DNA of 55,740 nt from Burkholderiales bacterium (GCA_035528435.1 DATKYN010000153.1:1-55740), one strand, 5' to 3'; positions 5,643-51,195 are shown, numbered from the stretch's first letter. Notes: generated from the sequence alone by a model not told the origin. Numbers and translations are program-made.

Positions 5643-6203
5643 GGTATGTTGCTCGATTCGATTGACTGGAAAATCCTCTCCCTGCTGCAGCTGGACGCGC
5701 GCTTGTCCAATGTTCAACTGGCGCACGCGGTAGGACTGTCACCGTCACCCTGCCTGGCGCGCGTGCGCGCCCTCGAGCAGGCCGGTTACATCAGCCGCTA
5801 TGTGTCTTTGCTCGATGCACTCAAGGTGGGTCTGAAAGTCAGTGTTTTCATTCAGGTCGCACTCGAACGCCAGGTCGAGAAAGCGCTGGAGATATTCGAG
5901 AACGCGATTCGCGAACGTCCTGAAGTGATGGAGTGTTATCTGATGACGGGAGAGGCCGACTATCTGTTGCGCGTCGTTGTGCCCGACATTCAGGCGCTTG
6001 AGGAATTCGTTCTGAATTTCCTGTCGCGTGTTCCCGGCGTGGGCAACATCAAATCCAGTTTCGCGCTCAAGCAGGTGAAATACCAGACAGCGTTGCCATT
6101 GCCGGTGGAAGCGGCGGTGGGCAACAAGAGTCATACGTCGGGACCAAATCGCCGGGACAAGGCGCGCAAGGTGGGACCTGGCAAGCGGACTCGGCGGGAA
6201 TGA
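5637..6203 (+). CDS. lrp: Lrp/AsnC-family transcriptional regulator
   Basis: HTH block [43 protein letters not shown] and a RAM-domain block ([19 protein letters not shown]). Start is ambiguous (TTG 5625, ATG 5637, ATG 5646). Basic C-terminal tail of about 30 aa. Confidence 0.9.
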
Positions 6204-6844
6204 GCGAGACTCCCGCCAACCCGGCGCAGGCGACAACCGGCATCGGCAACTGGCCCGCGAGTGTGTGCGTTTACTGCGGTTCGAGTAGCGGCGATCGCCC
6301 GGAGTACACCGTTGCCGCGCGTGAACTGGGTGCCTTGTTCGCCCGGCGCGAGATCAGGCTGGTGTTTGGCGGCGGCAGCGTTGGCTTGATGGGGGTGCTT
6401 GCCGACGCGGTGCTGGCCGCCGGGGGCAAGGTCACCGGCGTTATACCAAGGGGGCTGCGCACCGAAGAGCTCGCGCATGAAGGCTTGAGCGAGATGATCG
6501 TGGTTGACTCAATGCATGCAAGAAAGCAGCGCATGGTCGAACTCTCGGACGCGTTTATCGCAATGCCCGGTGGTATCGGAACACTGGATGAACTATTCGA
6601 AACGTTCACATGGCTGCAACTCGGCATTCACAGCAAGCCAGTCGGGCTGCTTAATGTGGCCGGTTATTATGATCCGTTACTTGCATTTCTGAGACACATG
6701 TCCGACCGACAGTTTCTGAGCGAGAAGCACCTCGGGTGTCTGTCGGTTGAAACGGACGCAGAGCGTTTGCTGAAGAAACTGAACAGCTTCAGAACGCCGG
6801 GCGACGGCAAATGGGCGTCTGACACGCAATCTTTGCGGCCTTGA
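6200..6844 (+). CDS. LOG-family protein (nucleotide 5'-monophosphate phosphoribohydrolase, TIGR00730 type)
   Basis: [15 protein letters not shown] and [12 protein letters not shown] motifs. The ATG overlaps the lrp TGA (ATGA at 6200-6203). Confidence 0.9.
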
Positions 6845-7255
6845 TTCGCTTCACGGGGAAGCCGAGGCCCTGCCTTGGACGACGCCCCCCAGATGTCTGG
6901 TTGCCGGAGATTTTGCATTCCGACGGTGCGATGAGCCACGGTCGGTTGGTAATGGAACGGTGCTGTCTTGAGCGTAGAATCTGCGAAAACCAGAGATAGT
7001 GCCCGGGTCGATCTTCAACGGCTGTTTTTCGGTTGGTAGCAGACCATCGGGTTACGGTCTATTGAGAACCGAAACCGTCGGTTTGCGGCCAGAAACAGAA
7101 GGTAACGCTATCGCCGTTACTGATAACATCCAGAAATATCAGTTTCTGTTGAAAAGCAGATTCGTTGCTCATGCCATGACTCAATCCATCAAGGGCGTAC
7201 GTAAATGCCGTGCCTATTCGGCTAACTGACAGAAACCCATCGTTCCGGCTGGATT

Positions 7256-7999
7256 TTATTGGTCAGTTTCTGAGTGTTCGCGACCAAACCGGGTTTGAGG
7301 TAGCGTATCCGTAGCCGACCGAAAAATTCGACTGTCCGCAAGCGCGACCGCGTTAACGATCAGCCATGCCAACAGCATCGTCGTTACGGTATGACTGAGA
7401 AAGTGGTCCCCGATCAACATTTTGTAAGCGCCCATGATCCAGCCAGTCGCCAGGGCTGCAAACAGGGCGCGCCGGCGATTGCGGGAATCTTGAAAAAGAA
7501 AGAACAGCGACAACAGGGCAAATCCGCCACTGGCATGACCAGCCGGAAAGCACCTGTACTTCGCTTTGCTCTGGTTGGTCTTTTGATATCTGCCAAAGAT
7601 GCCGGCGTACACACTGTCGCCACCGAACTGACTGAGGTCTCGGGGGCAAGCGACGTTGGTCGTATTCTTCAAAGCGCCTATGCAGGCCGGAACCAGAATC
7701 AGCGCCAAAAGGACTATCCGCATCCCGCTCTTGTAGGAACTGAGGGCGGGTAATCGGCGGATAAATATGAGGCACAGCATCAGGCCAAGCCCAAAGGTAA
7801 TCAGTATGCGTTTAATGCCATCGTAAAATAGTAACCGTCCCAGGGAGTCGGAGCTGCTGACGACCCACTGCTGTTCAGTAAAGTCGAAAAGCTGCTGTTG
7901 TAGCCAGATATCGGTTGGCGTCAGTTCGAACCAAACCAAACAGACTATCAACGCGCCTAGCGATCCAACAATATGACGGCAGCTAATCTTCGCGCTCAT
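7256..7999 (-). CDS. PAP2-family membrane phosphatase
   Basis: 247-aa polytopic membrane ORF with a PSGH-like block (FPAGHASGG) and a downstream GDHFLSH block. Overlaps the 3' end of the PEtN transferase gene by 17 nt. Confidence 0.75.
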   Translation of the reverse strand: MSAKISCRHIVGSLGALIVCLVWFELTPTDIWLQQQLFDFTEQQWVVSSSDSLGRLLFYDGIKRILITFGLGLMLCLIFIRRLPALSSYKSGMRIVLLALILVPACIGALKNTTNVACPRDLSQFGGDSVYAGIFGRYQKTNQSKAKYRCFPAGHASGGFALLSLFFLFQDSRNRRRALFAALATGWIMGAYKMLIGDHFLSHTVTTMLLAWLIVNAVALADSRIFRSATDTLPQTRFGREHSETDQ

Positions 8000-9653
8000 T
8001 TACGACGAATAGCGCTTCCGGACTGACCGGGATCTCGGCTGCTATCTCGAATGCGGAGAGCAGTGAATGAAATACGGTGTCGTGTGAGTTTGCCTGATCT
8101 CTAACACTCAGCGCACTGCTCAATTCGATATCGGAGGAGTCGCCAATCCATACGATGACCGGTACGTCCGTCTGCTCAACGGGCGCCAGAGCGTAGGGCA
8201 TCCCATGCAGGTACAGGCCATGTTCGCCTAGCGACTCGCCGTGGTCGCTGACGTAGAGCATCGCCGTTTCGAACCGCGGAGTATTGGCTTTCAGTAAAGA
8301 TATAACCTCGGACAGGAAGTAGTCCGTGTAGAGGATTGCGTTGTCGTAAGCATTACCAATTTCTTCATCGGTACAGCGGGATAGCTCCTCGAAGCCGCAA
8401 GCTGGCGTGAACCGCTCGAATTCCGGCGGATACCGCTTGAAGTACGCAGGGCCGTGATTTCCCATCTGGTGTAATACGATCAGGATGTCGCCGCTTTGTG
8501 CGTCTATGTACTCCTGTAGACCACTTAGCATTCCAACGTCGCGACACTCGGCGTCACACACGGGATTAACCCCTGGTTGTGTGAAATTTTCAAACGTCAC
8601 CCGATTCGCGACTCCCTTTGAACCGGAGTTGTTATCCCGCCAAAGGACGTTGACTCCGGCACGCATCAGGACATCGAGCACATTCTCGCTGTTTTCCGCT
8701 GTACGCCGATCGAATTGATCTCGCCCGTCCAGTGCAAACATGCACGGCACTGATATCGCAGTAGACGTCCCACACGCGGAGATATGAGTGTAACTAACGA
8801 CACGATCCTCTTTTTCCAATTCTGGATTGGTATCCCTTGTGTAGCCGTTTAATGAGAACCGGTTCGCTCGCGCGGTTTCGCCTACCACCATAATGATCAA
8901 TTCCGCCTCAGGGTCAGCGCCAGGCATTTCGGCGTCTTCCAGAATTCTGACTGGTTCTGCAAATGCTTCGACTGCATTCGTGGCAGCAAGGAACTTGCCG
9001 ATTGAATAAAGAGCAAATGTCGGATTGCTATAGTAGCGAAGCGGTTTGTGCAGGCGAAACAAGCCGGCGTACGAATCGCTGAAGCTAAACACGCACAATA
9101 GAATGATTGCGATTGCGCCGGCCGCCGACTGCGCTTTGTATTGCAGTTCGTGGAGTCGATTCGAATAGGCAAATGGCCAAAGCCATATTGCAGCAGCCGG
9201 AATTATCCCAGTGAAGATGAACCTCATTATCAAGCCGGCGTTCAACAGGTCCGCAGCTTCAGAGGTATCGGTTTCCAACACATTCTGAATCATGACGGTA
9301 TCTACAACCGCTCCAAACTGGTCCGCAAAATACCCGATTATTGCCGCCAGAATGATAAAAACACTGACCACAATCCGCGCTGGAATGATGCAACTCAGCA
9401 TTGTCATGAGTAGCGTCAAAACAGCAGCGAAGCCGATGCCGATTGACAACAGAAATCCGAAATTTCCTTCACTCCAGGGATACATCTCCAGCACCTTCCC
9501 GAGAAATGTAATATTCCCGGTCAAGGTCAGAAAGATCGCTGTCAAAACGATCAGTTTCGTTTGGGAGAGGCCGTGCTTGGGGCCTGGGTATCGCACTATT
9601 GGGGACCTGCCATGTTTGAAACACTGATATAGAGGGAAGGGCAGGCTACACAC
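7983..9653 (-). CDS. eptA: Phosphoethanolamine--lipid A transferase, EptA/MCR family
   Basis: Five N-terminal TM helices plus a sulfatase-fold domain carrying VVGETARA, CGTSTAISVPCMF, LWRDNNSGSKGV, ECRDVGML, LHQMGNHGPAYFKRY, AYDNAILYTD and MLYVSDHGESLGEHGLYLHGMP. Start uncertain (GTG 9653 or GTG 9596). Confidence 0.9.
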   Translation of the reverse strand: MCSLPFPLYQCFKHGRSPIVRYPGPKHGLSQTKLIVLTAIFLTLTGNITFLGKVLEMYPWSEGNFGFLLSIGIGFAAVLTLLMTMLSCIIPARIVVSVFIILAAIIGYFADQFGAVVDTVMIQNVLETDTSEAADLLNAGLIMRFIFTGIIPAAAIWLWPFAYSNRLHELQYKAQSAAGAIAIILLCVFSFSDSYAGLFRLHKPLRYYSNPTFALYSIGKFLAATNAVEAFAEPVRILEDAEMPGADPEAELIIMVVGETARANRFSLNGYTRDTNPELEKEDRVVSYTHISACGTSTAISVPCMFALDGRDQFDRRTAENSENVLDVLMRAGVNVLWRDNNSGSKGVANRVTFENFTQPGVNPVCDAECRDVGMLSGLQEYIDAQSGDILIVLHQMGNHGPAYFKRYPPEFERFTPACGFEELSRCTDEEIGNAYDNAILYTDYFLSEVISLLKANTPRFETAMLYVSDHGESLGEHGLYLHGMPYALAPVEQTDVPVIVWIGDSSDIELSSALSVRDQANSHDTVFHSLLSAFEIAAEIPVSPEALFVVNERED

Positions 9654-10190
9654 TATCAGTGAAAGCTTAAGGTTTTCTTAATCGCCTCGAATACGCTAAC
9701 GCCGGTAAAGATTCCGGCCCGATCTCAGGCCAGTATGCTGGGTGATCCACGCGATGCCGGTCCCTGCAGAAGCTCTTGGACACGGATGGACGGATGCTCG
9801 GTTCGCGCATCGGGGTGGCATTTCGGCCAAGCCAGGTGCCGCCCAGGCTTGCAATTGCAATCAGAGCCAGTACCGTTCCCCTGCCACCCTGCCACCCTGC
9901 CAATCAACTGTAGAGTCTCCGAAAGCCAGACATCAGGTGGTGTTGTCTAATGGCAGGGCCTCAGCTTTCCGAACTGATGGCCTGCCTCCAGGGTCCTCGG
10001 CAGCTACGAAAAGCTCCACAAACCAGACACTGGCGCCCGGCGCTCGAATAGCTGGATTCGGTTGATTGGTGGTTAAGCAAGCCCGTTCCTGAACGACCGC
10101 GTTCGACGTGGCTACTCACTCAAGCTTCGCCACACTCGCGCGGCGCAACTGCGTTCATAATGACGTCTTCGCAATTATTTCTGTCAGCGT

Positions 10191-10667
10191 ATGAAAATCG
10201 AAAAAAATTCCGCGGTCACAATACGGTTCAGAGTCTCGGAACTGCACGGCAAGCTGCTTGAGGACAGGAAAGAACCGGTAGCCTATCTGCACGGTGGCTA
10301 TGGCAATGTTCTGCCAAAGATCGAAGAAGCGCTGGAAGGGCAAACCGCCGGTTACCGGGTCACGCTTGATCTGCAACCAGGGGATGCGTTTGGCGAACGT
10401 GACGAAAGCCTGGTGCAGACTATTCGCAGGAGCGAGTTCCCGCCCGGCGTGAAAGTGGGCGGCGAGTTGCAGTGGCGGGACGGCGAAGGCCGGGTGCGAA
10501 TGTTCCTGGTCAAGAAGATAAAGGGACAGGAAGTCTTTATCGATGGCAACCACCCGCTTGCCGGCACGGGGTTGCGCTTCGTGGTGACGGTGCTGGATGT
10601 GCGCGCCGCGTCAGGCGAGGAAATCGCGCATGGCCACGTGCATGGAGACGGAGGGCATGATCACTGA
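10191..10667 (+). CDS. slyD: FKBP-type peptidyl-prolyl isomerase, SlyD-like, with a His-rich tail
   Basis: 158-aa ORF. FKBP/IF-domain blocks (VAYLHGGYGNVLPKIEEALEG, GNHPLAGTGLRF). C-terminal HGHVHGDGGHDH. Confidence 0.85.
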   Translation: MKIEKNSAVTIRFRVSELHGKLLEDRKEPVAYLHGGYGNVLPKIEEALEGQTAGYRVTLDLQPGDAFGERDESLVQTIRRSEFPPGVKVGGELQWRDGEGRVRMFLVKKIKGQEVFIDGNHPLAGTGLRFVVTVLDVRAASGEEIAHGHVHGDGGHDH

Positions 10668-18928: not shown

Positions 18929-19048
18929 GTATAGCAACTCCCCGATCCGGCCCTTGTGGCGGCGTTGCATGTTGCAGTACCGCATGGGCGTCCCGGGCCG
19001 TAGTCTTTTCGGCTATGCGCCGGTCGAGAGGTATCTCGTGTGGCGGGC

Positions 19049-19100
19049 CCAGGTATTACATCAGGTGGTGCTATAACAGGTGGCGCGAACCAGGTGTTAC
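19049..19100 (+). repeat. Nested direct repeats A-B-B'-A' upstream of the small ORF and symporter
   Basis: A = CCAGGTATTAC (19049-19059) and CCAGGTGTTAC (19090-19100). B = CAGGTGGTGC (19062-19071) and CAGGTGGCGC (19077-19086). This gives four CAGGT cores spaced 12-15 nt apart. Confidence 0.6.
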
Positions 19101-19202
19101 GATGCGGTGAGTTCGGTATGATCAAAGCGAACTATGCTCCGTCAATGATCGATGGGCTCGGTTGGTTGGCGAAGTCATCAAGTAATCAGGAGGAGAACAA
19201 TA

Positions 19203-19292
19203 ATGAATGTACTGACATTGATGGTGATCATCATCGCGGTCTATTGGGTGATTGGCATGCTCTGGGTCTCAGGTCAAAGAGACTGGGATTGA
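19203..19292 (+). CDS. Small hydrophobic protein (29 aa), candidate symporter accessory subunit
   Basis: ATG 8 nt after AGGAGGAG. Encodes MNVLTLMVIIIAVYWVIGMLWVSGQRDWD (one TM helix). Ends 36 nt before the symporter ATG. Below the 60-aa cutoff of the ORF track. Confidence 0.5.
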   Translation: MNVLTLMVIIIAVYWVIGMLWVSGQRDWD

Positions 19293-19328
19293 ATTCGTAA
19301 AAAATAAGAATAACGGGGGAGATGAGAA

Positions 19329-36634: not shown

Positions 36635-36914
36635 TCCGGATCGCATTCGTGGCCTGAACAACGCCGTTAATGTCAGTCCGGGTCGGGTAATCAGCGCGCG
36701 CGGGAGAGGTCGCGCCGAAAGAGCAGCCGAAAGGAAGGCGGATCGTTTTCTTTGGTCTCACCGTGCAATCAACTTTCCGTTTCCGTATGAAACCACTTGT
36801 CATGCAGGGCGAAATCGGGCCCACGATCATCCATGGAGCATACATCCGCGTGGATAGTTGTTATATTAGAGGTGTACTGAAGATTAACGATTAACTTTAT
36901 GATTGGAGAAAGTA

Positions 36915-37472
36915 ATGGCTGGAACTGCTGCCGCAAGAAAGAAATCGGGGGCTACTTCGAATTTGAGAAAGATGGTTACGAAAGACATCGCTTCGCTCAA
37001 AGCAAACCACAAGGATCAGATTGCCGCGATGAAAAAGCGGCTTGAGTCAGCCAGAAAGTCTGTGCTGGCAAATGCCGACAGGTTGAAGAAGCAGGCCGCC
37101 GCACAGCAGAAAAAGGTCGCTGCGGAACTCGCGAAAATGAAAAAGCAGGCGGAAGTTCAGAGAAAGAAAGCTTCGGACGAAATTTCCAGAGAGCTTGAAA
37201 AATTACGCAAGCAGGCGGCTGGGTGGATTGGCAATTCTGCCAAACCGGCATCGGCTAAAAAGAAAAAAACCGCCTCGAAGAAAAAGGCCGTGAAGAAAGC
37301 CGCACCAAAGAAAAAAGCCGTGAAAAAGAAAGCAGCCAAGAAAGCTGCACCAAAGAAAAAGGCTGTGAAGAAGGCCGCGCCGAAGAAAAGAGCAGCGAAG
37401 AAAGCTGCGCCTAAGAAGCGTGCTGTCAGAAAGCAGGCCTCCAAAAAGAGTGCTGCCCGCAAGAAGGGCTGA
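36915..37472 (+). CDS. Histone H1-like Lys/Ala-rich protein (AlgP/BpH1-like tail on a coiled-coil N-terminus)
   Basis: The ATG at 36915 follows GGAGAA. The C-terminal 70 aa are KKAAPKKKAVKK-type repeats; the N-terminal 110 aa are Lys/Ala/Gln-rich and heptad-like. Confidence 0.75.
   Translation: MAGTAAARKKSGATSNLRKMVTKDIASLKANHKDQIAAMKKRLESARKSVLANADRLKKQAAAQQKKVAAELAKMKKQAEVQRKKASDEISRELEKLRKQAAGWIGNSAKPASAKKKKTASKKKAVKKAAPKKKAVKKKAAKKAAPKKKAVKKAAPKKRAAKKAAPKKRAVRKQASKKSAARKKG
37255..37440 (+). repeat. In-frame tandem repeats of about 30 nt encoding (A)APKK(K/R)AVKK
   Basis: Repeated GCNGCNCCNAAGAAAAARGCYGTGAAR units, visible directly in the sequence. Confidence 0.8.
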
Positions 37473-40916: not shown

Positions 40917-41199
40917 TTGTGTGATGGACTCCCGGAGCGCGGCGGGTGCTTCGAGGCGGTCCCGGGTTGCACAGCCAACTTCGAACGCCGAAAGTTTTCG
41001 GTAACCGGGTGCGTGTAGCCAGGCCTGTGTCCAGAAATGCTTTTGCCTTGTCGCGGCGCACCATCGTGCCCATGACGCTCGCGTACGCGCTTGCGTTGAC
41101 ACGTCTAGCGGATTCTGTAATCGTTCCTCTACCTTGGGCAGTAGCCTGGTTCGGCTTGCTGCTTCGGGACCCAAAAATTAAATGAGGGGGAGAAGAATC

Positions 41200-42897
41200 A
41201 TGAGTCGAGTCAGTCAGATTATGCTGACCGGCATTGTCGGAGCCGTGCTGGCAACAGCATCGGGTGCGAGCATTGCCGATTCCAGCGGTCAATGGCTTCA
41301 CTATGGCGGAGATCAGGGAAATCTTCGTCACAGTGCGCTGAAACAAATCAATACACGCAACGTCAGTAAACTAAAAGTCGCCTGGATGCACTCGCTGGGT
41401 TCTCTGGAGACCCAGGAGTCGACTCCGCTGGTGGTCGGCGACACGATGTACGTTACGACGTCGACCGGTCCGCGTTTTGTTTTTGCACTGGACGCGAAGA
41501 CCGGCAAGACCAAGTGGGCACATCAACCGGAAATGCCGAACGATTATTTCGCTACCGTTTGCTGCGGCCTGGATAATCGCGGTGTTGCCTATGCGAACGG
41601 CAAGGTGTTCTTCGGCCGTCTCGACGCAAAGCTGGTCGCGCTCGATGCCAATACCGGCAAGAAGCTTTGGACGACGACGGTTGAAAATTACCGGAACGGT
41701 CATGCGATCACTTCGCCGCCCCTGATTGTCAATAACCTTGTTGTGACCGGAATCGCCGGCGGTGAATACGGTATCCGCGGCTTCATCGCGGCCTACGACC
41801 AGGACACGGGTGAGGAGGTCTGGAAAACCTACACCATTCCGGGTCCGGGTGAGCCGGGCAACGAGACCTGGAAGGGCGATTCGTGGAAAACGGGTGCCGG
41901 TTCGACATGGGGTGTTGGTTCGTACGATGCCAAGCTCAACACCATTTACTGGTCTACCAGTAATGCTGGTCCATGGGGCGGTCATACGCGCAGTGTTGAT
42001 TCCTCCGATTTCGGTGACCTCACCAACAAGTGGACCGCGTCGCAGCTCGCGTTTGACGCGGACACGGGGGCGATCAAGTGGGGCTACCAGTGGACGCCTA
42101 ATGACGTCTGGGATTACGACGGTATCAACGAAGCGGTGCTCTATGATCTGAAGATTGGCGGAAAAACCGTGCCGGCATTGATGCATGCCGACCGGAACGG
42201 CTTCTTCTACGTTCTGAATCGCGCGACTGGTCAACTCATTTCGGCCGATCCGTTCGTCACGGTGAACTGGGCAACGCATGTTGACCTTGAAACCGGCCGT
42301 CCGGTCGAGGCAGCGAACAATGAGAAGCGTCCGCAGCTGGGCAAGTGGGCGCGCAACGTTTGCCCGAACCTGATTGGTGGCAAGAACTGGTCGCCGATGT
42401 CGTATAGCCCGCAAACGGGATTGGTGTACATCCCCGCGTTCAATATGTGCATGGACATCGCTAACAAGGAAGAAGAGTACACCCCGGGTCGCTTCTATCT
42501 CGCTTCCGAGTTCGACCTCGGCAAAGCAGGTGCTACCGGCGATCACCTTGCCATGATGATGGCGTGGGACCCGGTCAAGAAGAAAGAAGTCTGGTCGATC
42601 AAGGAGCCGTTGATGTTCGCCAGCGGTGCAATGACAACTGCCGGCAATCTGCTGTTCTACGGAAACGTTGAGGGCATACTCAAGGCGGTGAATGCCAAGA
42701 CCGGCAAGGTGCTATGGGAGTTTGACGTGGGCACCGGCATCATTCAGAGCCCGATGACGTACACCGTTGACGGCAAGCAGTATCTTGCGGTTGTCGCCGG
42801 CAGGACCAAGGGCCCACCCTCGTTCTTCGGTGCGATTGGTCAACGTGTAACAGAGGCCAGCCCGGAGGGCGGTATTCTGGTCGTGTTTGAACTGTAA
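41200..42897 (+). CDS. PQQ-dependent alcohol dehydrogenase (methanol/ethanol family) with a lanthanide-type DYD motif
   Basis: Signal peptide, vicinal CC (ATVCCGLDNRG), GGEYGIRG, STSNAGPW, WDYDG (42109-42123), HADRNGFFY. The ATG follows GAGGGGGAGAAG. Confidence 0.95.
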   Translation: MSRVSQIMLTGIVGAVLATASGASIADSSGQWLHYGGDQGNLRHSALKQINTRNVSKLKVAWMHSLGSLETQESTPLVVGDTMYVTTSTGPRFVFALDAKTGKTKWAHQPEMPNDYFATVCCGLDNRGVAYANGKVFFGRLDAKLVALDANTGKKLWTTTVENYRNGHAITSPPLIVNNLVVTGIAGGEYGIRGFIAAYDQDTGEEVWKTYTIPGPGEPGNETWKGDSWKTGAGSTWGVGSYDAKLNTIYWSTSNAGPWGGHTRSVDSSDFGDLTNKWTASQLAFDADTGAIKWGYQWTPNDVWDYDGINEAVLYDLKIGGKTVPALMHADRNGFFYVLNRATGQLISADPFVTVNWATHVDLETGRPVEAANNEKRPQLGKWARNVCPNLIGGKNWSPMSYSPQTGLVYIPAFNMCMDIANKEEEYTPGRFYLASEFDLGKAGATGDHLAMMMAWDPVKKKEVWSIKEPLMFASGAMTTAGNLLFYGNVEGILKAVNAKTGKVLWEFDVGTGIIQSPMTYTVDGKQYLAVVAGRTKGPPSFFGAIGQRVTEASPEGGILVVFEL

Positions 42898-43079: not shown

Positions 43080-43457
43080 GTGCTCAAGTTGTCTACGAGA
43101 GTTATTTTGCAGTTGGCCGTGACGGCCGTGCTAGTTTGCACGCCACCAGTCGCGTTCGGAGAGGACGCGTCGTTGGTCAATCCATACGCCGGCCGGGAAG
43201 ACATTGTCGATGAGGGCGCAAGCCTGCTCAATCAGTATTGCTCGCATTGTCATGGTCCATACGCCGTTCAGGGAGAGCGTCCCCGCGACTTGCGCAGACT
43301 TCAACTTCGTTATGGTGACTACATGATTTCGACCTTCTATACGACGGTGCAAGAAGGCCGGATGGCCAAAGGCATGCCCTATTGGAAGGGTATCCTGGAC
43401 GACGATATCATCTGGAAAATCTATACTTTTCTGCAGACTATTCAGGTCGAGGATTAA
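43080..43457 (+). CDS. Small periplasmic c-type cytochrome (class I), likely electron acceptor of the PQQ-ADH
   Basis: The GTG at 43080 is 7 nt after AAGGGAGA. Signal peptide, one CSHCH haem motif, and a candidate Met ligand in KGMPYW. Confidence 0.8.
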   Translation: MLKLSTRVILQLAVTAVLVCTPPVAFGEDASLVNPYAGREDIVDEGASLLNQYCSHCHGPYAVQGERPRDLRRLQLRYGDYMISTFYTTVQEGRMAKGMPYWKGILDDDIIWKIYTFLQTIQVED

Positions 43458-43552: not shown

Positions 43553-45010
43553 TCATCTTGTCGGTATGTTCTCGCGCCAGTACACCGGTCGATTGTCGAC
43601 CCCGGGATCACCCAGGTATTTCGCCGGCGCCATCTCGTAGGCATACTCGTTAAGTCGCTGCATCATGGCGGCGACGCGATCCGGATATGTCGCGGCCTGG
43701 TTTTCGGCTTCCTCCGGGTCATTGGCAATCTGAAACAGCTCCACTTTGGTCGGCAACGCCGTGTGAATAATGAGCTTCCATTCGCCGATGCGTATCGCAC
43801 CATGGAACGGTTCGATATTAAGCAAAATCTCTCTTCCCTTGCGTGTGGTGAGTTCTCCATCAGCGATGACGGGAATGGCATCTACACCGTCAGTCTTTTT
43901 TCGTTGTTCAAGTGAGGCGCCGCCAACCGTCAGTAAGGTCACGTACATGTCGGTTACATGAATCGGTTGCGTCACAACTGTTTTTGGTTTGATACGAGCA
44001 GGCCAGTGTGCCAATGCAGCGACGCGGACTCCGCCTTCGTAGAGGCTCCCCTTGCCCTGTCGAAACACACCGTTATCTGAAACCGGGCTGCGGATATCAC
44101 CGTCTCCGGTTGCGAAACGCATCGGTATGGCACCGCCGTTGTCGCTATGGAAAACAATCAGTGTGTCGTTCAGCATGTCGCGCTTTTCGAGTGCTGAAAC
44201 AATTCTTCCTACAGCCGCATCAAGCGCACTCACTGCCGCTGCATAGCTGCGGCGCGCATCGTCGCTGATGTCCTTGTACGATTCGATCAGTGCCTGTGGT
44301 GCTCCCCAGTATTTTGCCGGCGTGTCGAATGCCGCGACCAGCAGCAGAGGTGCGCCGGCAGCATGTTTCTCAATGATGCTCACTGCTTCAGCTGCGAGCA
44401 GTTCTGTTGCATAGCCGTTCTCGAGGATGGCGCGCTCGCCGCGGTACCAGTCTGACTTGACGTCCTTGCGCAAGGCCGGTTCGGCAAGACCGGACAGCGT
44501 GCCGTAAAAGTGATCGAAGCCGCGTTGTGTGGGCCAGAATGCCCTATCGGAATGACCAAGCAACCAACTGCCGACAAAGGAGGTCCGGTATCCGCTCTCC
44601 TTCAGAGCCAGCGCAAACGTGCGTTCCTCTGCAGGCAGCCCGTAATCGCTTGCCGGGCCCACCGACAGCGTTTGCAGTCCGTATCGCATCGGATAACGGC
44701 CGGTCAGCATGGCAGCACGTGTCTGGCTGGAAAATGGTTGCGCGTAGAACGCATTGAGCATGGCCCCGCCAGCGGCAAGGCGGTCGAGATTCGGCGTGCG
44801 CGGTACGCCGCGGTGGAAGCCGACGTCACCCCAGCCCAGGTCGTCGGCCAGTATGTAGACGATATTGGGTCGTTGTCCTTCGACCTGATTGTCAGCGCCG
44901 GAATTGGCCTCCGCTTGCTGTGCTGCAATAAAAATTGCCGCGGTTAGCAGCGCGAGTGCGAGTAGTGCGTGGTCGACATGACTCTTGCCAGAGTACCAAA
45001 CCTGTTTCAT
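43553..45010 (-). CDS. Arylsulfatase-B-like sulfatase-fold protein with a non-canonical active site
   Basis: NIVYILADDLGWGDVGFH, HSDNGG and GKGSLYEGGVRV are conserved. The FGly motif reads SSQTR (44717-44731) and the VGKWHLG block reads VGSWLLG. ATG 45010 gives a signal peptide. Confidence 0.85.
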   Translation of the reverse strand: MKQVWYSGKSHVDHALLALALLTAAIFIAAQQAEANSGADNQVEGQRPNIVYILADDLGWGDVGFHRGVPRTPNLDRLAAGGAMLNAFYAQPFSSQTRAAMLTGRYPMRYGLQTLSVGPASDYGLPAEERTFALALKESGYRTSFVGSWLLGHSDRAFWPTQRGFDHFYGTLSGLAEPALRKDVKSDWYRGERAILENGYATELLAAEAVSIIEKHAAGAPLLLVAAFDTPAKYWGAPQALIESYKDISDDARRSYAAAVSALDAAVGRIVSALEKRDMLNDTLIVFHSDNGGAIPMRFATGDGDIRSPVSDNGVFRQGKGSLYEGGVRVAALAHWPARIKPKTVVTQPIHVTDMYVTLLTVGGASLEQRKKTDGVDAIPVIADGELTTRKGREILLNIEPFHGAIRIGEWKLIIHTALPTKVELFQIANDPEEAENQAATYPDRVAAMMQRLNEYAYEMAPAKYLGDPGVDNRPVYWRENIPTR

Positions 45011-45189
45011 CGTGCGTGCCTCTGCCAGTGCGTAGATAATCACTATGATACGATCATCCGGGAGTGCCACGAAGCGCCGTCTGGCCGTTGCCGCGTGCGC
45101 TTCCCGGGTGTTCCATCGTGCCGGGCTGAAACGCTATCCATGCCCGGTTTCTCGCAGCCGATGGTAAGTGCGGGCGGTAGCTTACTAAA

Positions 45190-46686
45190 ATGTCCGAACC
45201 TGACATGATGATTCGATGGCTGGATCTTGCCGCCCGCCGCATCCGGTGGAACGAGCGGCTCGAGGACGGAACACGGCTGTCGATCTGTTTGCTGGTGCTG
45301 GTGATCGTTTATCAGCTATTGGATGCAGCGCTGGGTATGACGCCGGTGTTGAGCGCGTTAATGCCATTGTTGCTGCTGGCTGTCGCTTTGGTGTTCGGCT
45401 GGTTCGGCTGGCGTTTGATTGGCCGGGATTGTCTGCTGCCGCCGGACCGCGCCGGCGCGGCTGCCGTCGTGGATGCGCGGGCCGGATTACACAACGAACT
45501 TGCCAGTGCGCTCTGGTTTTCGGGTGGCAGCCCCCAGGGCGATCTCGTTCGTTTTCACATGGCACGTGCCGCGCTGACCACCGGGCGGCTGGAGCTTTCA
45601 CGGCTGCTGCCAGTGGAAAAACCACGCAGCCTTCCCTTTGTTCTGGCGCTGATTGTTGTGACCGTCCTGTTGGCGATCATGCCATCGTCGACCGATTTCT
45701 CCCGGGCCACACTGGAAGTGGTTAATCGTCTCGCACAACGCGATGCCGGTTCCGTTGCCTCGCTGGGCGAGGCGGATAGTGAAGATTCCGGATTGGACGA
45801 ATTCTCCGGGTTACGCAGCGAAGCAGCATGGTTGAAAGTTGAAAACCTGGCACGTGAACTCAGGGCCAGTCCGCACAGCGCTGAAATAGCACAGGCGATT
45901 GCGGCGCGTGATGCAAAAAAAGCGTCGCGCCTGCTCGCCGGCATGAGCCGGCGCGAATCGGCCCAGCCGGCTACAGGTTCGGCCGCAAAACCGGATGTCG
46001 AGCAAATGTCGGAGCAACTTGCGAAGGGTATTGTCGATCGCTTGCAGTCGTTGCTGAACGAAGGTGGAGGGTGGTCGGAGCAGCCGGCTGCCGATGACGC
46101 AGGTGGTTCCAATGAGAGAGTCACCGACGACCTGACGCGTGAACTGCGAGAAGAAATGCGAGACGCGCAGGAGAGCCGGCGCGGTGAGATGAGTCCGGAA
46201 GAGCAGGTGCTGAACACGAGGTTGCAGGCGATGTCGCGCGACAGTACCGGCGGGCGCGAGCTCGTACGCGGCGAAGCCAATCCGATGCAGGGTCTTGGCC
46301 GCACAAGTGTTGGCAGTGGCGCGATGGGTCGGCGTGTCGGCGTCAGCACGGGTGGCGCAGGGGATGGCGAACAGCCGCACGGTAATCCGGACGGCGAAGC
46401 CGAGGCTGAGCCGGTACTCGGTCGCAAGACAATGCGTCTGCAACTCCAGATGCAGACCGTAAAAATCGACCAGCCGGAAACGGAACTAGCCGATGGCAGT
46501 GAAGAGTCTTTCTATGCAGCGACCCAGGCGCAGGCAGCCAATACGCAGTACGAAGCCATCGTGGCGCAGCAGCGTGGCGGCGCGGAGCAGAGCACCGGTG
46601 ACGTGGGTGTACCAATTGCCTATCGGGATGCCGCCAGATCGTATTCGGTGCGTCAGCATCGCCGGGAAAGTCTGACCAAGCAATGA
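45190..46686 (+). CDS. Membrane protein with three N-terminal TM helices and a long acidic low-complexity tail (DUF4175-like)
   Basis: 498-aa ORF. First gene of a tightly packed three-gene unit. Family call is tentative. Confidence 0.7.
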   Translation: MSEPDMMIRWLDLAARRIRWNERLEDGTRLSICLLVLVIVYQLLDAALGMTPVLSALMPLLLLAVALVFGWFGWRLIGRDCLLPPDRAGAAAVVDARAGLHNELASALWFSGGSPQGDLVRFHMARAALTTGRLELSRLLPVEKPRSLPFVLALIVVTVLLAIMPSSTDFSRATLEVVNRLAQRDAGSVASLGEADSEDSGLDEFSGLRSEAAWLKVENLARELRASPHSAEIAQAIAARDAKKASRLLAGMSRRESAQPATGSAAKPDVEQMSEQLAKGIVDRLQSLLNEGGGWSEQPAADDAGGSNERVTDDLTRELREEMRDAQESRRGEMSPEEQVLNTRLQAMSRDSTGGRELVRGEANPMQGLGRTSVGSGAMGRRVGVSTGGAGDGEQPHGNPDGEAEAEPVLGRKTMRLQLQMQTVKIDQPETELADGSEESFYAATQAQAANTQYEAIVAQQRGGAEQSTGDVGVPIAYRDAARSYSVRQHRRESLTKQ

Positions 46687-46708
46687 AACGGATCGAGCAC
46701 TGTCTGTC

Positions 46709-48469
46709 ATGAACGCACTGGCGCTTTCTCCGCTGCTCGCGTACACGGTGGTCGCAATCACCGCGCTGCTGATCGTGCTGTTGCATCTGTTGCGCCCGCG
46801 CGCATTGCGCCGCGCGGTATCGTCTACGCTGTTGTGGGTGCAGGTGCTGCGCCAGCGCAGCAAATACCACGCTCCCTGGCGCTGGCTGCTGTCACTGTTG
46901 TTGTGCCTTCTGGTCGGCGCAGCGCTGGCGTTAGCGCTCGGAAGGCCTGAAGGACCTGGCAGTGGTCAGTCGAAAGTTGTAGTGGTTCTGGATAACAGTC
47001 CGTCGATGGCAGCGCGCACTCGCGACGGTACGAGCCGCTGGCATCATGCCGTTGAAAAAGCACACTCGTTGATCGACTCGACTGGCGTTGAGGTCATGTT
47101 GGTCGATACCATGGGCCGCGCACCGGTCGAGGGGTTTGTCCATCCGGCCAGGGCGCTTGACGCACTCGGCCGCTTCCAGGTCGTCAGCCACGGCGCGCCG
47201 CGTGCGCCGGTTCTGCCGGAAACAGGCGAGTTCGATGTGCATGTCATCAGCGATGGCGTCGCAGCATTCGATGTTCCCCCCGATGCCATCGTTCATTCTG
47301 TTTTCGAACAGGCGGTCAATGTTGCGATCACCGGGCTGCAAGTGCGTCCTTATCCGGCTGATCCACTTCGTGTGGAAGCGTTCGTGCAGGTCTACAACGC
47401 GTCGACACAAGCGCAACGCGTGCGTTTGTCGTTGCGAGGATCCGAAAAATTCTCGGTCGCGCAGGAATTGCAAATGGATAGCGGTGAACTGATTGACGCC
47501 AGCTTTGACATCAGTGATTTCGATGCCGGCGTACTTGCCGCAGCTGCCTTGGCCGAAGGCGATGCGTTTGCGTCGGACGATCTTGCGTTTGCAATGGTCG
47601 CGCCCCATCGCGTCCGGGATGTGGTGCTCGTAACCGGTGGCAATGCGCGACTGGAAGATGCGATCCGTTCGCTGCCGGGTGTGCGTCTGGGTGTGATTGC
47701 CCCCGATGCATGGAACGACGCAGTTGGAGCGGATGTCTTCGTGTTCGATCGCTTTACACCGAAGCAACGCCCGTCACGCGGCGTTTTGCTGTTTCGACCT
47801 GGCGCGACGGTCTGGTTGCCCGGCGAACGCAGAGCGGTGCGCGACCCGGTGATCAGTGATTGGTCGCGTGGCGATGATTTGCTTGATGGCGTCGCATGGC
47901 AGCGGCTCAGGGTCGGCCGGGCTTCCCTGATGACGGACCTCCCTGATGAAAGATCTGCGCAAGTCAGGACGGCGGACGGTGCCTTGATTGCTTCGGGAAC
48001 TGAGGGTGGTCGCTGGATCGTCGCTGGATTCTCCGTGGAAGACTCGAATATTTCATTGCAGCCGGGTTTGCCGGTGTTTCTTGGCAACGCATTGCGCTGG
48101 CTTAGTGAGGGTGATGCCGTGATTTCGACCGGGCTTGGAGCCGTACGGGTCCCGTTGCCCAAAGCCCGTGTCGTCGATGGTGCTGGCGCCGCGATGCCGG
48201 TTCGCGTGTTCGGCGGCGAAACCTTGTTCGACGCAACCCGGCCGGATGTGTACACCGCGCTCACGGAGACGGAAAAATTGCGAATTGTCGTCAACGTGCT
48301 CGATCCCCGCGATGCAGATATCAACGTCAGCCGGTTCGAAACTGTCAGCACCAGCCAGGTAGGGTTATCGGGGATCGCGCGAATCGAGCCATGGATTGCG
48401 TTAGTGGTGTTCGCGTTGGTACTGATGCTGATTGAATGGTTGGCCTGGGTCCGCCGCTTCGCGACATGA
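46709..48469 (+). CDS. BatA-type N-terminal double-TM protein with a vWA-like domain
   Basis: N-terminus LIVLLHLLRPRALRR...LLWV (aerotolerance-regulator N-terminal pattern), MIDAS-like VVVLDNSPSM, C-terminal TM helix. Confidence 0.8.
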   Translation: MNALALSPLLAYTVVAITALLIVLLHLLRPRALRRAVSSTLLWVQVLRQRSKYHAPWRWLLSLLLCLLVGAALALALGRPEGPGSGQSKVVVVLDNSPSMAARTRDGTSRWHHAVEKAHSLIDSTGVEVMLVDTMGRAPVEGFVHPARALDALGRFQVVSHGAPRAPVLPETGEFDVHVISDGVAAFDVPPDAIVHSVFEQAVNVAITGLQVRPYPADPLRVEAFVQVYNASTQAQRVRLSLRGSEKFSVAQELQMDSGELIDASFDISDFDAGVLAAAALAEGDAFASDDLAFAMVAPHRVRDVVLVTGGNARLEDAIRSLPGVRLGVIAPDAWNDAVGADVFVFDRFTPKQRPSRGVLLFRPGATVWLPGERRAVRDPVISDWSRGDDLLDGVAWQRLRVGRASLMTDLPDERSAQVRTADGALIASGTEGGRWIVAGFSVEDSNISLQPGLPVFLGNALRWLSEGDAVISTGLGAVRVPLPKARVVDGAGAAMPVRVFGGETLFDATRPDVYTALTETEKLRIVVNVLDPRDADINVSRFETVSTSQVGLSGIARIEPWIALVVFALVLMLIEWLAWVRRFAT

Positions 48470-51195
48470 CGCTGTCGAATCCGCATGCATTCTGGCTGTT
48501 GGGCATTGTGCCGCTGGTGTGGCTGCTCGCATGGCTCAGCCGTGGCTTGCACGCGCCGCGGCGTCTGTCGCTGGCGACAGGAGCAAGAACTCTGGCGCTG
48601 CTGTTACTGGTTGTCGCACTTGCGCAGCCGACTGCGTTGCAACGCCTTGATGTCAAGTCGGTGGTCTACGCCATTGACGTGTCGCACAGTGTTTCCTCTG
48701 CGTTCCTGAAACAGGCACTTGACTGGGCCACCGCAGCCAACCAGAGATATCAGCCGGAGCAGACGCGCTACCTGGTATTTGCTGACGGAGTCCGGTTACT
48801 GGAATCGCCCGAGCAGGTGTTGTCGGTTACGGTCAGTAGCAAGCCCGCGGAGCAAGGCAGATTCGGTAATGCGTCCGGCAACGGGCCGCAGCGCGATCGC
48901 GGGGTGATCGGGCAAAGCGCGACCGACATTGAATCGGCGCTGCATGCCGCGATGTTCGGTTTTGCGCCGGGACACGCCAGGCGTCTGGTGCTGATTACGG
49001 ACGGCAACCAGACTCGGGGTGACATCGAACGTGCCATGACACGGCTGCAGAATGAGCGTGTTCGGGTGTTTGCGATTCCGGCGGCCGCTTCCGCGGACAG
49101 TGATGCGTGGATCGAGTCGATCGAATTTCCGCCGGGTGTGAGGCAGCAGGAACCGGCCGTTGTCCGCGTTGTCGTTCGCTCACTGAACGCGATGCCGGCT
49201 CTGGTTGAGCTGAAAAACGGCGGGCGCGTTCTTGGCAAACGCGAGGTGCGTTTGTCTGCCGGTGAGAGTTCCGTCACGTTTGACACGCGCTTGCCGAAAG
49301 CGGGCACATCTGTTCTGACCGCGCAACTCACGGCAAAAGCCGATCGGGTTGCGGAAAACAATGTGTTGAGCGCGAGTGTCCGGGTTGGACCAAGGCCGCG
49401 TGTGCTCTACGTCGAAGGCACACCGGAAAGCGCACATTATCTTGCCGATGCGTTGCGCGTACACCACATCGATGTAACGGTCTCGACGGCCAAAGGTCTT
49501 GATGACAATCCGGAGCGGCTCAACGGGTATGACGCAGTTATCATCAGTGATGTCTATGCGCACGACTTCGGCCCTGAGACCGTGCGGCGGCTTGGCATGT
49601 TCGTGCACGAACGCGGTGGAGGGCTGGTGTTTGCCGCCGGAGAGAGTACTTACGGAAAGCAGGGTTACGCCGGAAACGATATCGAGCGGCTGCTTCCGGT
49701 GCGGTTCGAGGCAAAGAGAAAGCGCCGGGAGCTTGATCTGGTCCTTCTGATTGACCGTTCGCACAGTATGCGCGGTCGCAAGCTGGAACTGGCGAAAACA
49801 GCCGCCTTGTCGACGCTGGACTTGCTTGAGGAGCAACACCGCCTGGCCGTGATCGGGTTCGACGCGCGACCCCACGCAGTCGTCCCGCTTCGGGAAGTCG
49901 GCAACAAGCGGCGCGCCGAAGATCTCATCTCCAGCATGACCGCAAGCGGCCAGACACGTATCTATCCGGCACTGGCGATGGCACAACGCGTTCTTGCCGA
50001 TTCAACATCAAGCACACGCCACATTATCCTGCTTTCCGATGGCGTAACGGCTGCCGGTAGCGCCGGCGCGAACGCAGCGCAGCGCATACAGGAGGAAATT
50101 CAGCGTGGCCGTGATGAGGCGATTCGCCGGGCTGCCGGACCGAATGGCTCGGCGGCGACGCCAGAGTTGACCTCGCAAGCCGGGAGCATGGAAGAACTTG
50201 TGGCGCAACTTGCGGCCGATGAAATATCCCTGTCCACTATCGCGATCGGCCCGAAACCGAATGTGGACATGATGAGCGCGATAGCAGAAGCCGCCGGCGG
50301 AAAAGCGTATGTCGCCAGCAATGATGCCGAGATGCCGGGCCTGTTCGTATCGGAAACACGCCGATTGCTCGGCGATTCGATTGTTGAAGAACCTTTCAGG
50401 CCGGTTGCCGGTTATCGAGCAGGACCTATTGATGGACTGGATTTCGAGTCGGGTCCGCCGCTGGGCGGTTTTGTCACCACTCGTGCCAAACAGTTCTCCG
50501 ATGTCATGCTGCGCGCACCGGAAGACCAACCATTGCTGGTGGCGACACACTACGGTCTTGGCCGCACTGTGGCGTTCTTGTCAGACGTAAAAAACCGCTG
50601 GTCGTCCCAGTGGCTGCAGTGGGACGGGTACGGCCGTTTCTGGTCTCAGGTGGTGCGCGATGTCATTGCGCGTCGAACCGAAGTCGGGTTCGATTGGCGG
50701 GTGACCCGGACAGGTGGCGATGCCATGGTCGAGATGACCGCTATGTCTGCCGATTACCGATTCCGCAATGGCCTGTATCCGAGAGTAAGGGTGACGGCGC
50801 CGTCAGGGGAAACCGCGACTTTGCTGCTGCGCCAGGTTGCGCCGGGGGCGTACCGGGCGCGGCTGCCAATTTCAGCCGGGGCAGCCAGCCCCTATCGCTT
50901 CGCCCTGGTCGAAGGTGGTGGTATTGCTCGGGCGGACATTGCGCAAGCGGGCGAGCAACTGCTGTCTTATACCTGGACCGATGAGTATCGGTCGTTGCCA
51001 CCGAATAATGCACTGCTGAGAGAACTCAGCGAGAGCACTGGTGGCGTGTTCGCGCCGAAAGCGCAGGACGTGTTTGCCGATTATGGCGACAGCGAGCTGG
51101 TGCCGCAGCCGTTATGGCACTGGTTCGTCGCGGCGGCCTTGCTCCTGTTTCTGGCCGACATTCTGATACGGCGTTCGCCATGGTTTGTTCGATAG
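48466..51195 (+). CDS. Membrane-anchored double-vWA protein with GATase1-like (DUF1355-type) inserts
   Basis: The ATG overlaps the previous TGA (ATGA). Double-TM N-terminus, MIDAS motifs AIDVSHS and LIDRSHSM, VLYVEG...YDAVIISDV...GGGLVFAAG blocks, C-terminal TM helix. Confidence 0.8.
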   Translation: MTLSNPHAFWLLGIVPLVWLLAWLSRGLHAPRRLSLATGARTLALLLLVVALAQPTALQRLDVKSVVYAIDVSHSVSSAFLKQALDWATAANQRYQPEQTRYLVFADGVRLLESPEQVLSVTVSSKPAEQGRFGNASGNGPQRDRGVIGQSATDIESALHAAMFGFAPGHARRLVLITDGNQTRGDIERAMTRLQNERVRVFAIPAAASADSDAWIESIEFPPGVRQQEPAVVRVVVRSLNAMPALVELKNGGRVLGKREVRLSAGESSVTFDTRLPKAGTSVLTAQLTAKADRVAENNVLSASVRVGPRPRVLYVEGTPESAHYLADALRVHHIDVTVSTAKGLDDNPERLNGYDAVIISDVYAHDFGPETVRRLGMFVHERGGGLVFAAGESTYGKQGYAGNDIERLLPVRFEAKRKRRELDLVLLIDRSHSMRGRKLELAKTAALSTLDLLEEQHRLAVIGFDARPHAVVPLREVGNKRRAEDLISSMTASGQTRIYPALAMAQRVLADSTSSTRHIILLSDGVTAAGSAGANAAQRIQEEIQRGRDEAIRRAAGPNGSAATPELTSQAGSMEELVAQLAADEISLSTIAIGPKPNVDMMSAIAEAAGGKAYVASNDAEMPGLFVSETRRLLGDSIVEEPFRPVAGYRAGPIDGLDFESGPPLGGFVTTRAKQFSDVMLRAPEDQPLLVATHYGLGRTVAFLSDVKNRWSSQWLQWDGYGRFWSQVVRDVIARRTEVGFDWRVTRTGGDAMVEMTAMSADYRFRNGLYPRVRVTAPSGETATLLLRQVAPGAYRARLPISAGAASPYRFALVEGGGIARADIAQAGEQLLSYTWTDEYRSLPPNNALLRELSESTGGVFAPKAQDVFADYGDSELVPQPLWHWFVAAALLLFLADILIRRSPWFVR

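Follow-up and report, generated by a model that had tools for sequence, protein, structure and literature searches.

The mcr-1-pap2 unit, in which the gene for a phosphoethanolamine (PEtN) transferase is followed by that for a PAP2-family membrane phosphatase, is the cargo of ISApl1/Tn6330 and resides on IncX4, IncI2 and other plasmids. Mobile colistin-resistance genes have their source in PEtN transferases that are linked to pap2 and to dgkA, the gene for diacylglycerol kinase. Such transferases are already known to be widespread in environmental bacteria (PMC10285318, PMC12064563), and mcr genes adjoin pap2 or dgkA, whereas intrinsic eptA genes adjoin regulators (PMC10285318). Here a locus of this kind is described in a 55,740-nt stretch of DNA from a Burkholderiales bacterium (GCA_035528435.1, DATKYN010000153.1:1-55740), which is referred to in its whole length as the window, and from whose first letter all positions are counted. 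At a probability that we put at about 80%, the region from ~6877 to ~10117 of the window is an accessory insertion between a LOG-family gene and slyD, carrying an eptA-pap2-dead dgkA operon that stems from a three-gene module. An earlier sequence-only reading had singled out the transferase and phosphatase genes as a foreign islet; what is added here is the dgkA remnant, the proof by empty sites within a hotspot, and an unexplained inverted repeat that brackets the unit.

As in the mcr-1-pap2 unit, the transferase gene of the window precedes the PAP2 gene, the catalytic and disulfide residues of the transferase are the same, the PAP2 proteins are of the same variant subfamily, and the two transferases group together in the tree, apart from MCR-3/-8/-9 and EptA. 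The likeness of the gene order to mcr-1/pap2 had been noticed earlier, and the order mcr-1 then pap2 is indeed seen in an mcr-1 plasmid (L171). The absence of an adjacent two-component or TetR regulator likewise gives the locus an mcr-type context (PMC10285318). In contrast to the mcr-1-pap2 unit, however, the locus is chromosomal, belongs to an uncultured environmental bacterium and is free of ISApl1 or any other transposase; its two genes overlap by 17 nt, whereas mcr-1 and pap2 are separated by 47 nt; and it retains a remnant of dgkA, which the mcr-1 unit lacks.

Closer relatives are the modules L081 (JGI 3300022673), L082 (GCA_021773815.1) and L184 (Logan DRR538840), which have the same gene order and overlap at 68-70% identity, and of which L081 and L082, like the window, have a GC content under that of their surroundings. 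Their dgkA is intact whereas that of the window is truncated, they lie in entirely different surroundings, and the inverted repeat that flanks the unit in the window has no counterpart in L081 or L082. The best plasmid relative (48%), on the mobilizable Pseudoalteromonas arctica plasmid NZ_CP011027, carries eptA-CDF-pap2-dgkA beside IS66 and thus has both accessory genes, but is more distant than the chromosomal relatives, has a cation-diffusion-facilitator (CDF) gene between eptA and pap2, and has a far lower GC, 0.38. The same principle, a transferase linked to diacylglycerol kinase, is found in mcr-3-dgkA and mcr-7-pap2-dgkA (PMC7559476; PMC10285318), although MCR-3 is only ~36% identical to the window protein and belongs to the other major clade.

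Insertion between the LOG-family gene and slyD

The insert, ~3.25-3.29 kb of DNA that is absent from the empty site of relatives, was delimited by comparison with the loci L167-L170 and L178-L181. Its left neighbour is the LOG-family gene (6200-6844) and its right neighbour is slyD (10191-10667). Syntenic relatives were found through a search with SlyD, the window protein being 73% identical to those of metagenome-assembled genomes (MAGs) of Betaproteobacteria/Burkholderiales; a metagenome scan with the LOG protein gave only distant relatives (62% or less). The arrangement aceE-lrp-LOG ... slyD-RND-MFP-mlrC-ABC is kept in the related genomes at ~80% nucleotide identity.

The sequence-only reading had named synteny as a check on its foreign islet, and four relatives (L167, L168, L169 and L170) have an empty junction, in which LOG and slyD are separated by a spacer of 81 nt. 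The first ~35 nt of this spacer align to window 6842-6876, as well as which only 0-0.2% of shuffles do, and the last 48 nt align (in L167) to window 10143-10190, so that the spacer is fully covered by the two junction sequences of the window and holds no remnant of the module. In the closer relatives L178-L181 the right-hand homology reaches 10118. These alignments place the left junction of the insert at 6853-6877 and the right one at 10117-10143. Conserved flanks beside eptA, which would have pointed to vertical inheritance, were found in no relative, and the flanking genes of the window stand beside eptA in none of 80 genomic eptA loci.

At least five states occur at this one junction: the empty spacer; the eptA-pap2-dgkA remnant (the window and L083-L085); a SulP transporter, a decarboxylase and a Rieske oxygenase (L166, L177); SulP with a LOG fragment (L178-L181); and a split arylsulfatase with an IS1182 transposase (L182). 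The LOG|slyD spacer is therefore a hotspot of insertion and rearrangement in this lineage. The three loci that share the arrangement of the window (L083-L085) are independent metagenome contigs of the same population, with 99.7-99.95% identity. Samples containing this lineage are ENA ERZ27256828 and ERZ27256834 and SRR8554512; its relatives are represented in JGI 3300083978, GCA_942492245.1, ERZ25039600 and ERZ18545485. In L182 (6811-9919), a more distant relative, a gene of the arylsulfatase type is split into open reading frames (ORFs) of 283 and 292 residues that adjoin the IS1182-family transposase; this sulfatase is not kin to eptA and resembles the sulfatase encoded at 43553-45070 of the window.

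The setting of the cassette is chromosomal, among housekeeping genes, and thus differs from the plasmid or transposon carriage that defines MCR genes, although the insert itself shows past mobility. No transposase, integrase or tRNA gene was found in the window, in keeping with what the sequence-only reading had seen of the first two.

Several observations weigh against the main reading of this locus. Distances among the window, L166 and L167 are about equal (81-82% identity), so that gain versus loss is not formally polarised, and the most distant SlyD relative examined lacks the synteny and gives no polarisation either. Only one genomic context of the exact cassette is known, a second not having been found. 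A scan for sigma-70-like consensus sequences in the region upstream of eptA (9597-9915) returned no promoter site. With respect to composition, GC at third codon positions (GC3) is only 0.8-1.5 standard deviations (sd) low in the cassette and its codon usage is unremarkable, and the related module lies 2-6 GC points under its surroundings in every other host examined (L081, L082, L001, L002 and the Pseudoalteromonas plasmid).

Some of these points would suit an alternative in which the gene pair is ancestral at the locus and vertically inherited, the "empty" relatives having deleted it and other cargo having replaced it elsewhere. With the lineages of the window, L166 and L167/L169 at about equal distances, loss and gain would each take a single event and are formally about equally parsimonious; GC3 and codon usage lie near those of the host; and the decay of dgkA shows that the module has already spent some time in its host. 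On the other hand, deletion does not readily account for an 81-nt spacer that is explained by two junction sequences and is free of module remnants, for several different states at one junction, for nearest EptA relatives (68-70%) that lie in unrelated contexts, or for the lack of the window's flanks at all 80 eptA loci. Ancestral residence thus appears unlikely. Gain, a direction that, like the mode of entry, we infer from these comparisons, is much the simpler reading than loss, though not formally proven.

Base composition

The GC content of the insert is low. In 1-kb windows it is 0.51-0.54 over 6.5-10 kb and 0.59-0.60 on either side; the unit 6856-9970 has a GC of 0.528, compared with 0.583 in the remainder of the window, and ranks among the lowest 1% of windows of its size (3115 nt), and the GC of the cassette genes is 2-2.5 sd below that of the other ORFs of the window. 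Hand counts over single 60-nt lines, on which the sequence-only reading had based its claim, are exactly right for all eight lines when recomputed (27, 29, 29 and 27 of 60 at 7081, 7801, 8041 and 9301; 34, 37, 37 and 41 of 60 at 12301, 25501, 41401 and 46201). The claim of a compositionally foreign pair holds in so far as the GC profile is not flat, but GC alone is weak evidence, as related modules are low everywhere. Either an AT shift is inherent in the eptA(-pap2-dgkA) genes, or the module is foreign to every host that carries it. Because the same offset is seen in every host examined, composition has been downgraded as proof of foreign origin, and the foreignness of the insert rests on synteny, not on GC.

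The dip might also reflect nothing but the amino-acid bias of membrane-protein genes, in which case there would be no islet. Consistent with such a bias, the first codon position is the most affected (0.53-0.56 against ~0.63) and the third only modestly so; in its other hosts, too, the homologous module is low by the margin given above. However, the non-coding left flank is equally low (GC 0.526), and the syntenic empty sites reveal an insert whatever its composition. As a full explanation the bias is refuted and hardly credible; as a caution on the use of GC it remains.

Three other spots of low GC were noticed in the window. The second-lowest (0.50-0.515) lies at 36635-37472 and contains an ORF of 189 residues (36903-37472, +) that is strongly AT-skewed and matches nothing in Pfam; another, mild dip (0.525) lies at 42.9-43.6 kb; and a 400-nt intergenic region at 18929-19328 (GC 0.517) lies upstream of a sodium:solute symporter gene, small ORFs being called there in L166 and L167.

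The transferase gene

The eptA-like gene lies on the minus strand at 7983-9596, encoding 537 residues from a GTG at 9596. The sequence-only reading had reported an ORF of 556 residues at 7983-9653 (-), and this is indeed the longest form, starting at GTG 9653; the shorter form is likely the genuine one, because GTG 9596 is the start of a public gene call with the exact protein (P0001, 537 residues) and the nearest relatives have 536-537 residues. An exact look-up of the 556-residue form was empty, which is explained by the public call being the 537-residue form.

The product contains the Pfam domains PF08019 (EptA_B_N, residues 76-223, E 8e-38) and PF00884 (Sulfatase, residues 253-536, E 9e-52), and scores 592.6 bits on the NCBIfam model of lipid A PEtN transferases, NF028537, whose cut-off is 500. 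The top solved structure is that of full-length MCR-1 (9nww, E 1e-135). Identity to MCR-1.1 is 43.2% by tblastn and 44% in an alignment with the MCR-1.1 of an IncX4 plasmid, in which the active-site residues of MCR-1 (E246, T285, K333, H390, H395, D465, H466, E468 and H478) and its three disulfide pairs (C281/291, C356/364 and C414/422) are all identical in the window protein. All seven PEtN-transferase motifs that had been read from the sequence by eye were found verbatim. From the family model and the conserved residues, eptA is predicted to encode a complete lipid A PEtN transferase.

Assignment to a narrower family fails. The product scores 454 bits on the MCR-1 model NF000465 (cut-off 1100) and 311-437 bits on the remaining MCR models, MCR-2 to MCR-13 (cut-offs 1075-1250); "MCR-1-like" is a fair term for the resemblance, but the protein does not qualify for any MCR family. 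The chromosomal, intrinsic EptA (PmrC) of Enterobacterales has the same fold and the same predicted chemistry, but the window protein lies under both EptA equivalog cut-offs (463 against 660 and 323 against 561 bits; NF008619 / NF007160), is 38% identical to Pantoea EptA, and has no PmrAB-type or TetR neighbour.

Since the protein falls below the cut-offs of every equivalog model, that of EptA included, it might be supposed that it modifies a target other than the phosphate of lipid A (Kdo, heptose or protein, as do EptB, CptA and EptC), in which case the link to polymyxin would be misleading. This is very unlikely: the lipid A-specific model is passed, scores for the enzymes with other targets are much lower (EptB 172, CptA 93, and EptC 54 bits in a search of the PDB), the protein clusters with MCR-1 in the tree, the linked PAP2 best matches a lipid A phosphatase model, and linkage to dgkA is a signature of lipid-donor chemistry. 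A transferase acting on lipid A is accordingly the preferred assignment.

The non-coding region upstream of eptA (9597-9915, -) is presumed to be the promoter or regulatory stretch. No Rfam family was detected in it at the gathering threshold or at E <= 1, and it has no nucleotide homology with the upstream regions of L081, L082 or L001. Among the annotated ORFs of the window there is no two-component (PmrAB-like) or TetR regulator, the neighbours of eptA being pap2, the dgkA remnant, LOG and slyD.

A second gene of the sulfatase fold, at 43553-45070 (-), encodes a protein of 505 residues of the arylsulfatase type without an EptA_B_N domain, which is not a PEtN transferase.

PAP2 and the remnant of dgkA

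The pap2 gene (7256-7999, -) encodes a membrane phosphatase of 247 residues that matches PF01569 (E 1.7e-17; 63.8 bits against a cut-off of 27.2). The stop codon of eptA (TAG, 7985-7983) lies within pap2, whose ATG is at 7999-7997, and the resulting overlap of 17 nt suggests that the two genes are translationally coupled. Strand, extent and overlap of the PAP2 ORF had been given exactly in the earlier reading. The best NCBIfam matches lie below their cut-offs (PAP2_lipid_A, NF028538, 164 against 275; PAP2_near_MCR1, NF028536, 110 against 475), and the protein is 36% identical to the mcr-1-linked PAP2. In an alignment, the variant motifs KX6CP for KX6RP, PAGH for PSGH and HxxxH for HxxxD are common to the PAP2 proteins of the window, L081, L082, the Pseudoalteromonas plasmid and mcr-1, by which the window PAP2 would be assigned to the same variant subfamily as the mcr-1-linked one.

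Directly after pap2, a truncated and start-less remnant of dgkA, comprising 47 N-terminal codons, was identified at 7259-7119 (-) by tblastn and a profile search. It is 43% identical over 47 residues to the DgkA of L081 (tblastn, E 5e-9) and covers only positions 4-39 of a profile built from 20 eptA-linked DgkA proteins (E 1.5e-9). The position of the initiator methionine is occupied by ATA, an in-frame stop lies just upstream (7265-7263), and the frame stays open without homology to a stop at 7059. An intact DgkA has ~120 residues and three helices; the ELLNSxIE catalytic core (PF01219) is missing from the remnant, and the C-terminal part was absent from all six frames in a profile search. 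By these features the dgkA of the window falls short of a complete gene and is a pseudogene remnant. A single change, ATGA -> ATAA, at an overlap with the pap2 stop was considered as the cause of the lost start and dropped, the relatives having gaps of 17-34 nt at this place.

The remnant also alters the picture of the downstream flank of ~410 nt, which had been described as ORF-poor and is in fact partly occupied by the dead gene. A terminator-like hairpin (7102-7120, -), consisting of a 6-bp stem followed by CTTCTGTTTC, was found by a consensus scan directly after the remnant. At 7120-7102 it might mark the 3' end of the eptA-pap2 transcript, a weak call given that such sites are no commoner in the region than in shuffled sequences.

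Relatives and origin of the module

In a neighbour-joining tree built from 131 sequences (200 bootstrap replicates), the window protein groups with those of L081 (P0004), L082 (P0003) and L184 (P0002) at 97% bootstrap. MCR-1 joins the large environmental clade that holds the window protein at 76%, apart from MCR-3/-8/-9 and Pantoea EptA, which bears out the earlier description of the transferase as MCR-like, though the two proteins are only 43% identical. The placement of MCR-1 relative to that clade is nevertheless weak, the node that unites 58 environmental sequences without MCR-1 having only 17% support.

The nearest non-self proteins in a large protein collection are 68-70% identical. The best match among species-representative genomes is 63%, and the named matches are mostly marine Gammaproteobacteria of the Cellvibrionales type, with one Rhodocyclales MAG. 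None of the 1798 matches among PLSDB plasmids exceeds 48% identity, and a DNA search of plasmids likewise gave no closer match; the plasmid matches include MCR-1.1 (43.2%) and MCR-3, -8, -9 and -10 (35-36%).

An intact eptA-pap2-dgkA module is present in all three of the closest relatives (L081, L082 and L184), where eptA and pap2 also overlap, by 14-17 nt, and the genomic contexts of these 68-70% relatives are unrelated to that of the window. Judged by the grouping in the tree, the intact modules of the relatives and the remnant, the cassette of the window most probably descends from a three-gene eptA-pap2-dgkA module. Of the loci retrieved, a minority, scattered across the tree, have pap2, dgkA or both behind the transferase gene, which agrees with published surveys (PMC7559476; PMC10285318).

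A contig of a Colwellia sp. MAG (L020) and the Pseudoalteromonas arctica plasmid NZ_CP011027 (L172) were seen to share 6.3 kb at 99.9% identity, with the order czcA-eptA-CDF-pap2-dgkA. This match could mean either that a plasmid-borne module is common to two genera, or that the MAG contig has been mis-binned.

Proposed function

The eptA product is predicted to consist of a five-helix membrane anchor and a periplasmic, Zn-dependent domain of the alkaline-phosphatase fold. By analogy with its family, it would transfer PEtN from phosphatidylethanolamine, by way of the nucleophile Thr298 (numbering of the 556-residue form), to a phosphate of lipid A, a transfer that would release diacylglycerol. 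The addition of PEtN would make the outer membrane less negative and weaken the binding of polymyxins and other cationic peptides. PAP2 most likely supports the transfer, either with a lipid A or undecaprenyl (pyro)phosphate as its substrate or by recycling a lipid by-product. We infer the substrate, the phenotype and the role of PAP2 from these resemblances.

The DgkA of the module, which would have re-phosphorylated the diacylglycerol, is lost, and its job probably falls to a host dgkA elsewhere in the genome, as is suggested by the intact and coupled state of eptA and pap2 beside a decayed dgkA. According to a passage in PMC12064563 that cites Purcell et al. (2022), the diacylglycerol by-product has to be detoxified by DgkA. 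In E. coli, hpap2 and dgkA are dispensable, yet raise resistance (PMC7559476). The decay of dgkA with eptA and pap2 intact agrees with experiments in which host dgkA supplies the recycling, and hints that PAP2 is the more specifically required accessory gene of the two.

The bracketing inverted repeat and the mode of entry

Terminal inverted repeats had been reported as absent by the sequence-only reading, but local alignment reveals a significant imperfect inverted repeat of 55 nt that brackets the unit. Its left arm lies at 6856-6910, with a weak extension to 6968, and its right arm at 9916-9970, ~320 nt upstream of the eptA start, with a weak extension to 9865. The arms (6856-6910 against 9970-9916) are ~78% identical, with an alignment score of 48 against a mean of 17.7 (sd 2.1, maximum 26) for shuffled sequences, and the repeat pairs I4, I1 and I2 are collinear across them. 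Within the window the 19-mer GGRAAGCYGAGGCCCTGCC occurs only at the two arms (0.08 expected), and the 19-nt core GATGTCTGGYTDBCGGAGA has three matches, at 6892 (+), 6980 (-) and 9916 (-), all at the borders of the islet (0.13 expected). The inverted core copies at 6892-6910 (+) and 6980-6998 (-) delimit a long hairpin in the left flank (6892-6998), and the fold of 6850-6999 has an energy of -60.3 kcal/mol (z = -2.7). A further, partial and weaker copy of the core (10009-10029, -; repeat families I5 and D1) lies between the right arm and the conserved upstream region of slyD.

These features raise the alternative that the repeat-bracketed unit, 6856-9970, is a non-autonomous transposable cassette (a mobile insertion cassette or a composite of miniature inverted-repeat transposable elements, MITEs) whose transposase is encoded elsewhere. 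The repeat stands exactly round the cargo, the rest of the 55.7-kb window is free of its motifs, the extra core copies form a MITE-like hairpin, and the site is a hotspot at which one relative has an IS1182 transposase. However, the outer ends of the repeat are not accompanied by a direct target-site duplication. The left arm straddles the junction, its outer ~20 nt being collinear with the spacer at the empty sites of L167/L169 (an alignment equalled by 0-0.2% of shuffles) and hence resembling host spacer, whereas the right arm stops 147-172 nt inside the right junction of the insert. No copy of the repeat was found elsewhere in 176 related and unrelated loci totalling 2 Mb, nor around the module in L081, L082 or L001; it has no similarity to the IS1182 region of L182; and the cassette is seen in one context only. 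Transposition of this unit as such is therefore improbable.

It is more speculative still that the 3.1-kb unit represents an undescribed non-autonomous mobile cassette that shuttles transferases of the MCR-1 clade and their accessory genes among environmental proteobacteria, with the LOG|slyD spacer as a preferred target; we consider this unlikely. If true, the cassette would represent, in nature, the stage that precedes mobilisation, as the mcr-1-pap2 segment of Moraxella did until ISApl1 captured it. The inverted repeat is thus a real but unexplained feature of the border of the accessory insertion. It could be a scar of integration, such as an inverted duplication of target sequence, or the ends of a non-autonomous element.

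Significance and other features of the window

The locus is a real but fairly ordinary member of the environmental pool behind mobile colistin-resistance genes. To that pool it adds a clean example of a module that has demonstrably been inserted, since related genomes offer empty sites, at a hotspot whose cargo varies among these relatives, and in which dgkA has decayed with eptA and pap2 intact and translationally coupled. There is no evident clinical concern, the transferase being 43% identical to MCR-1 and encoded on the chromosome of an uncultured organism without a mobility gene.

Elsewhere in the window, two large ORFs without a Pfam match (498 and 586 residues) are followed on the same strand by a gene for a 919-residue VWA + GATase1-like protein; together (45190-51195) they may form an uncharacterised operon. 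Two dehydrogenases dependent on pyrroloquinoline quinone (PQQ) are encoded at 41182-42897 (+) and 53801-55609 (+), and a small cytochrome c at 43080-43457 (+).

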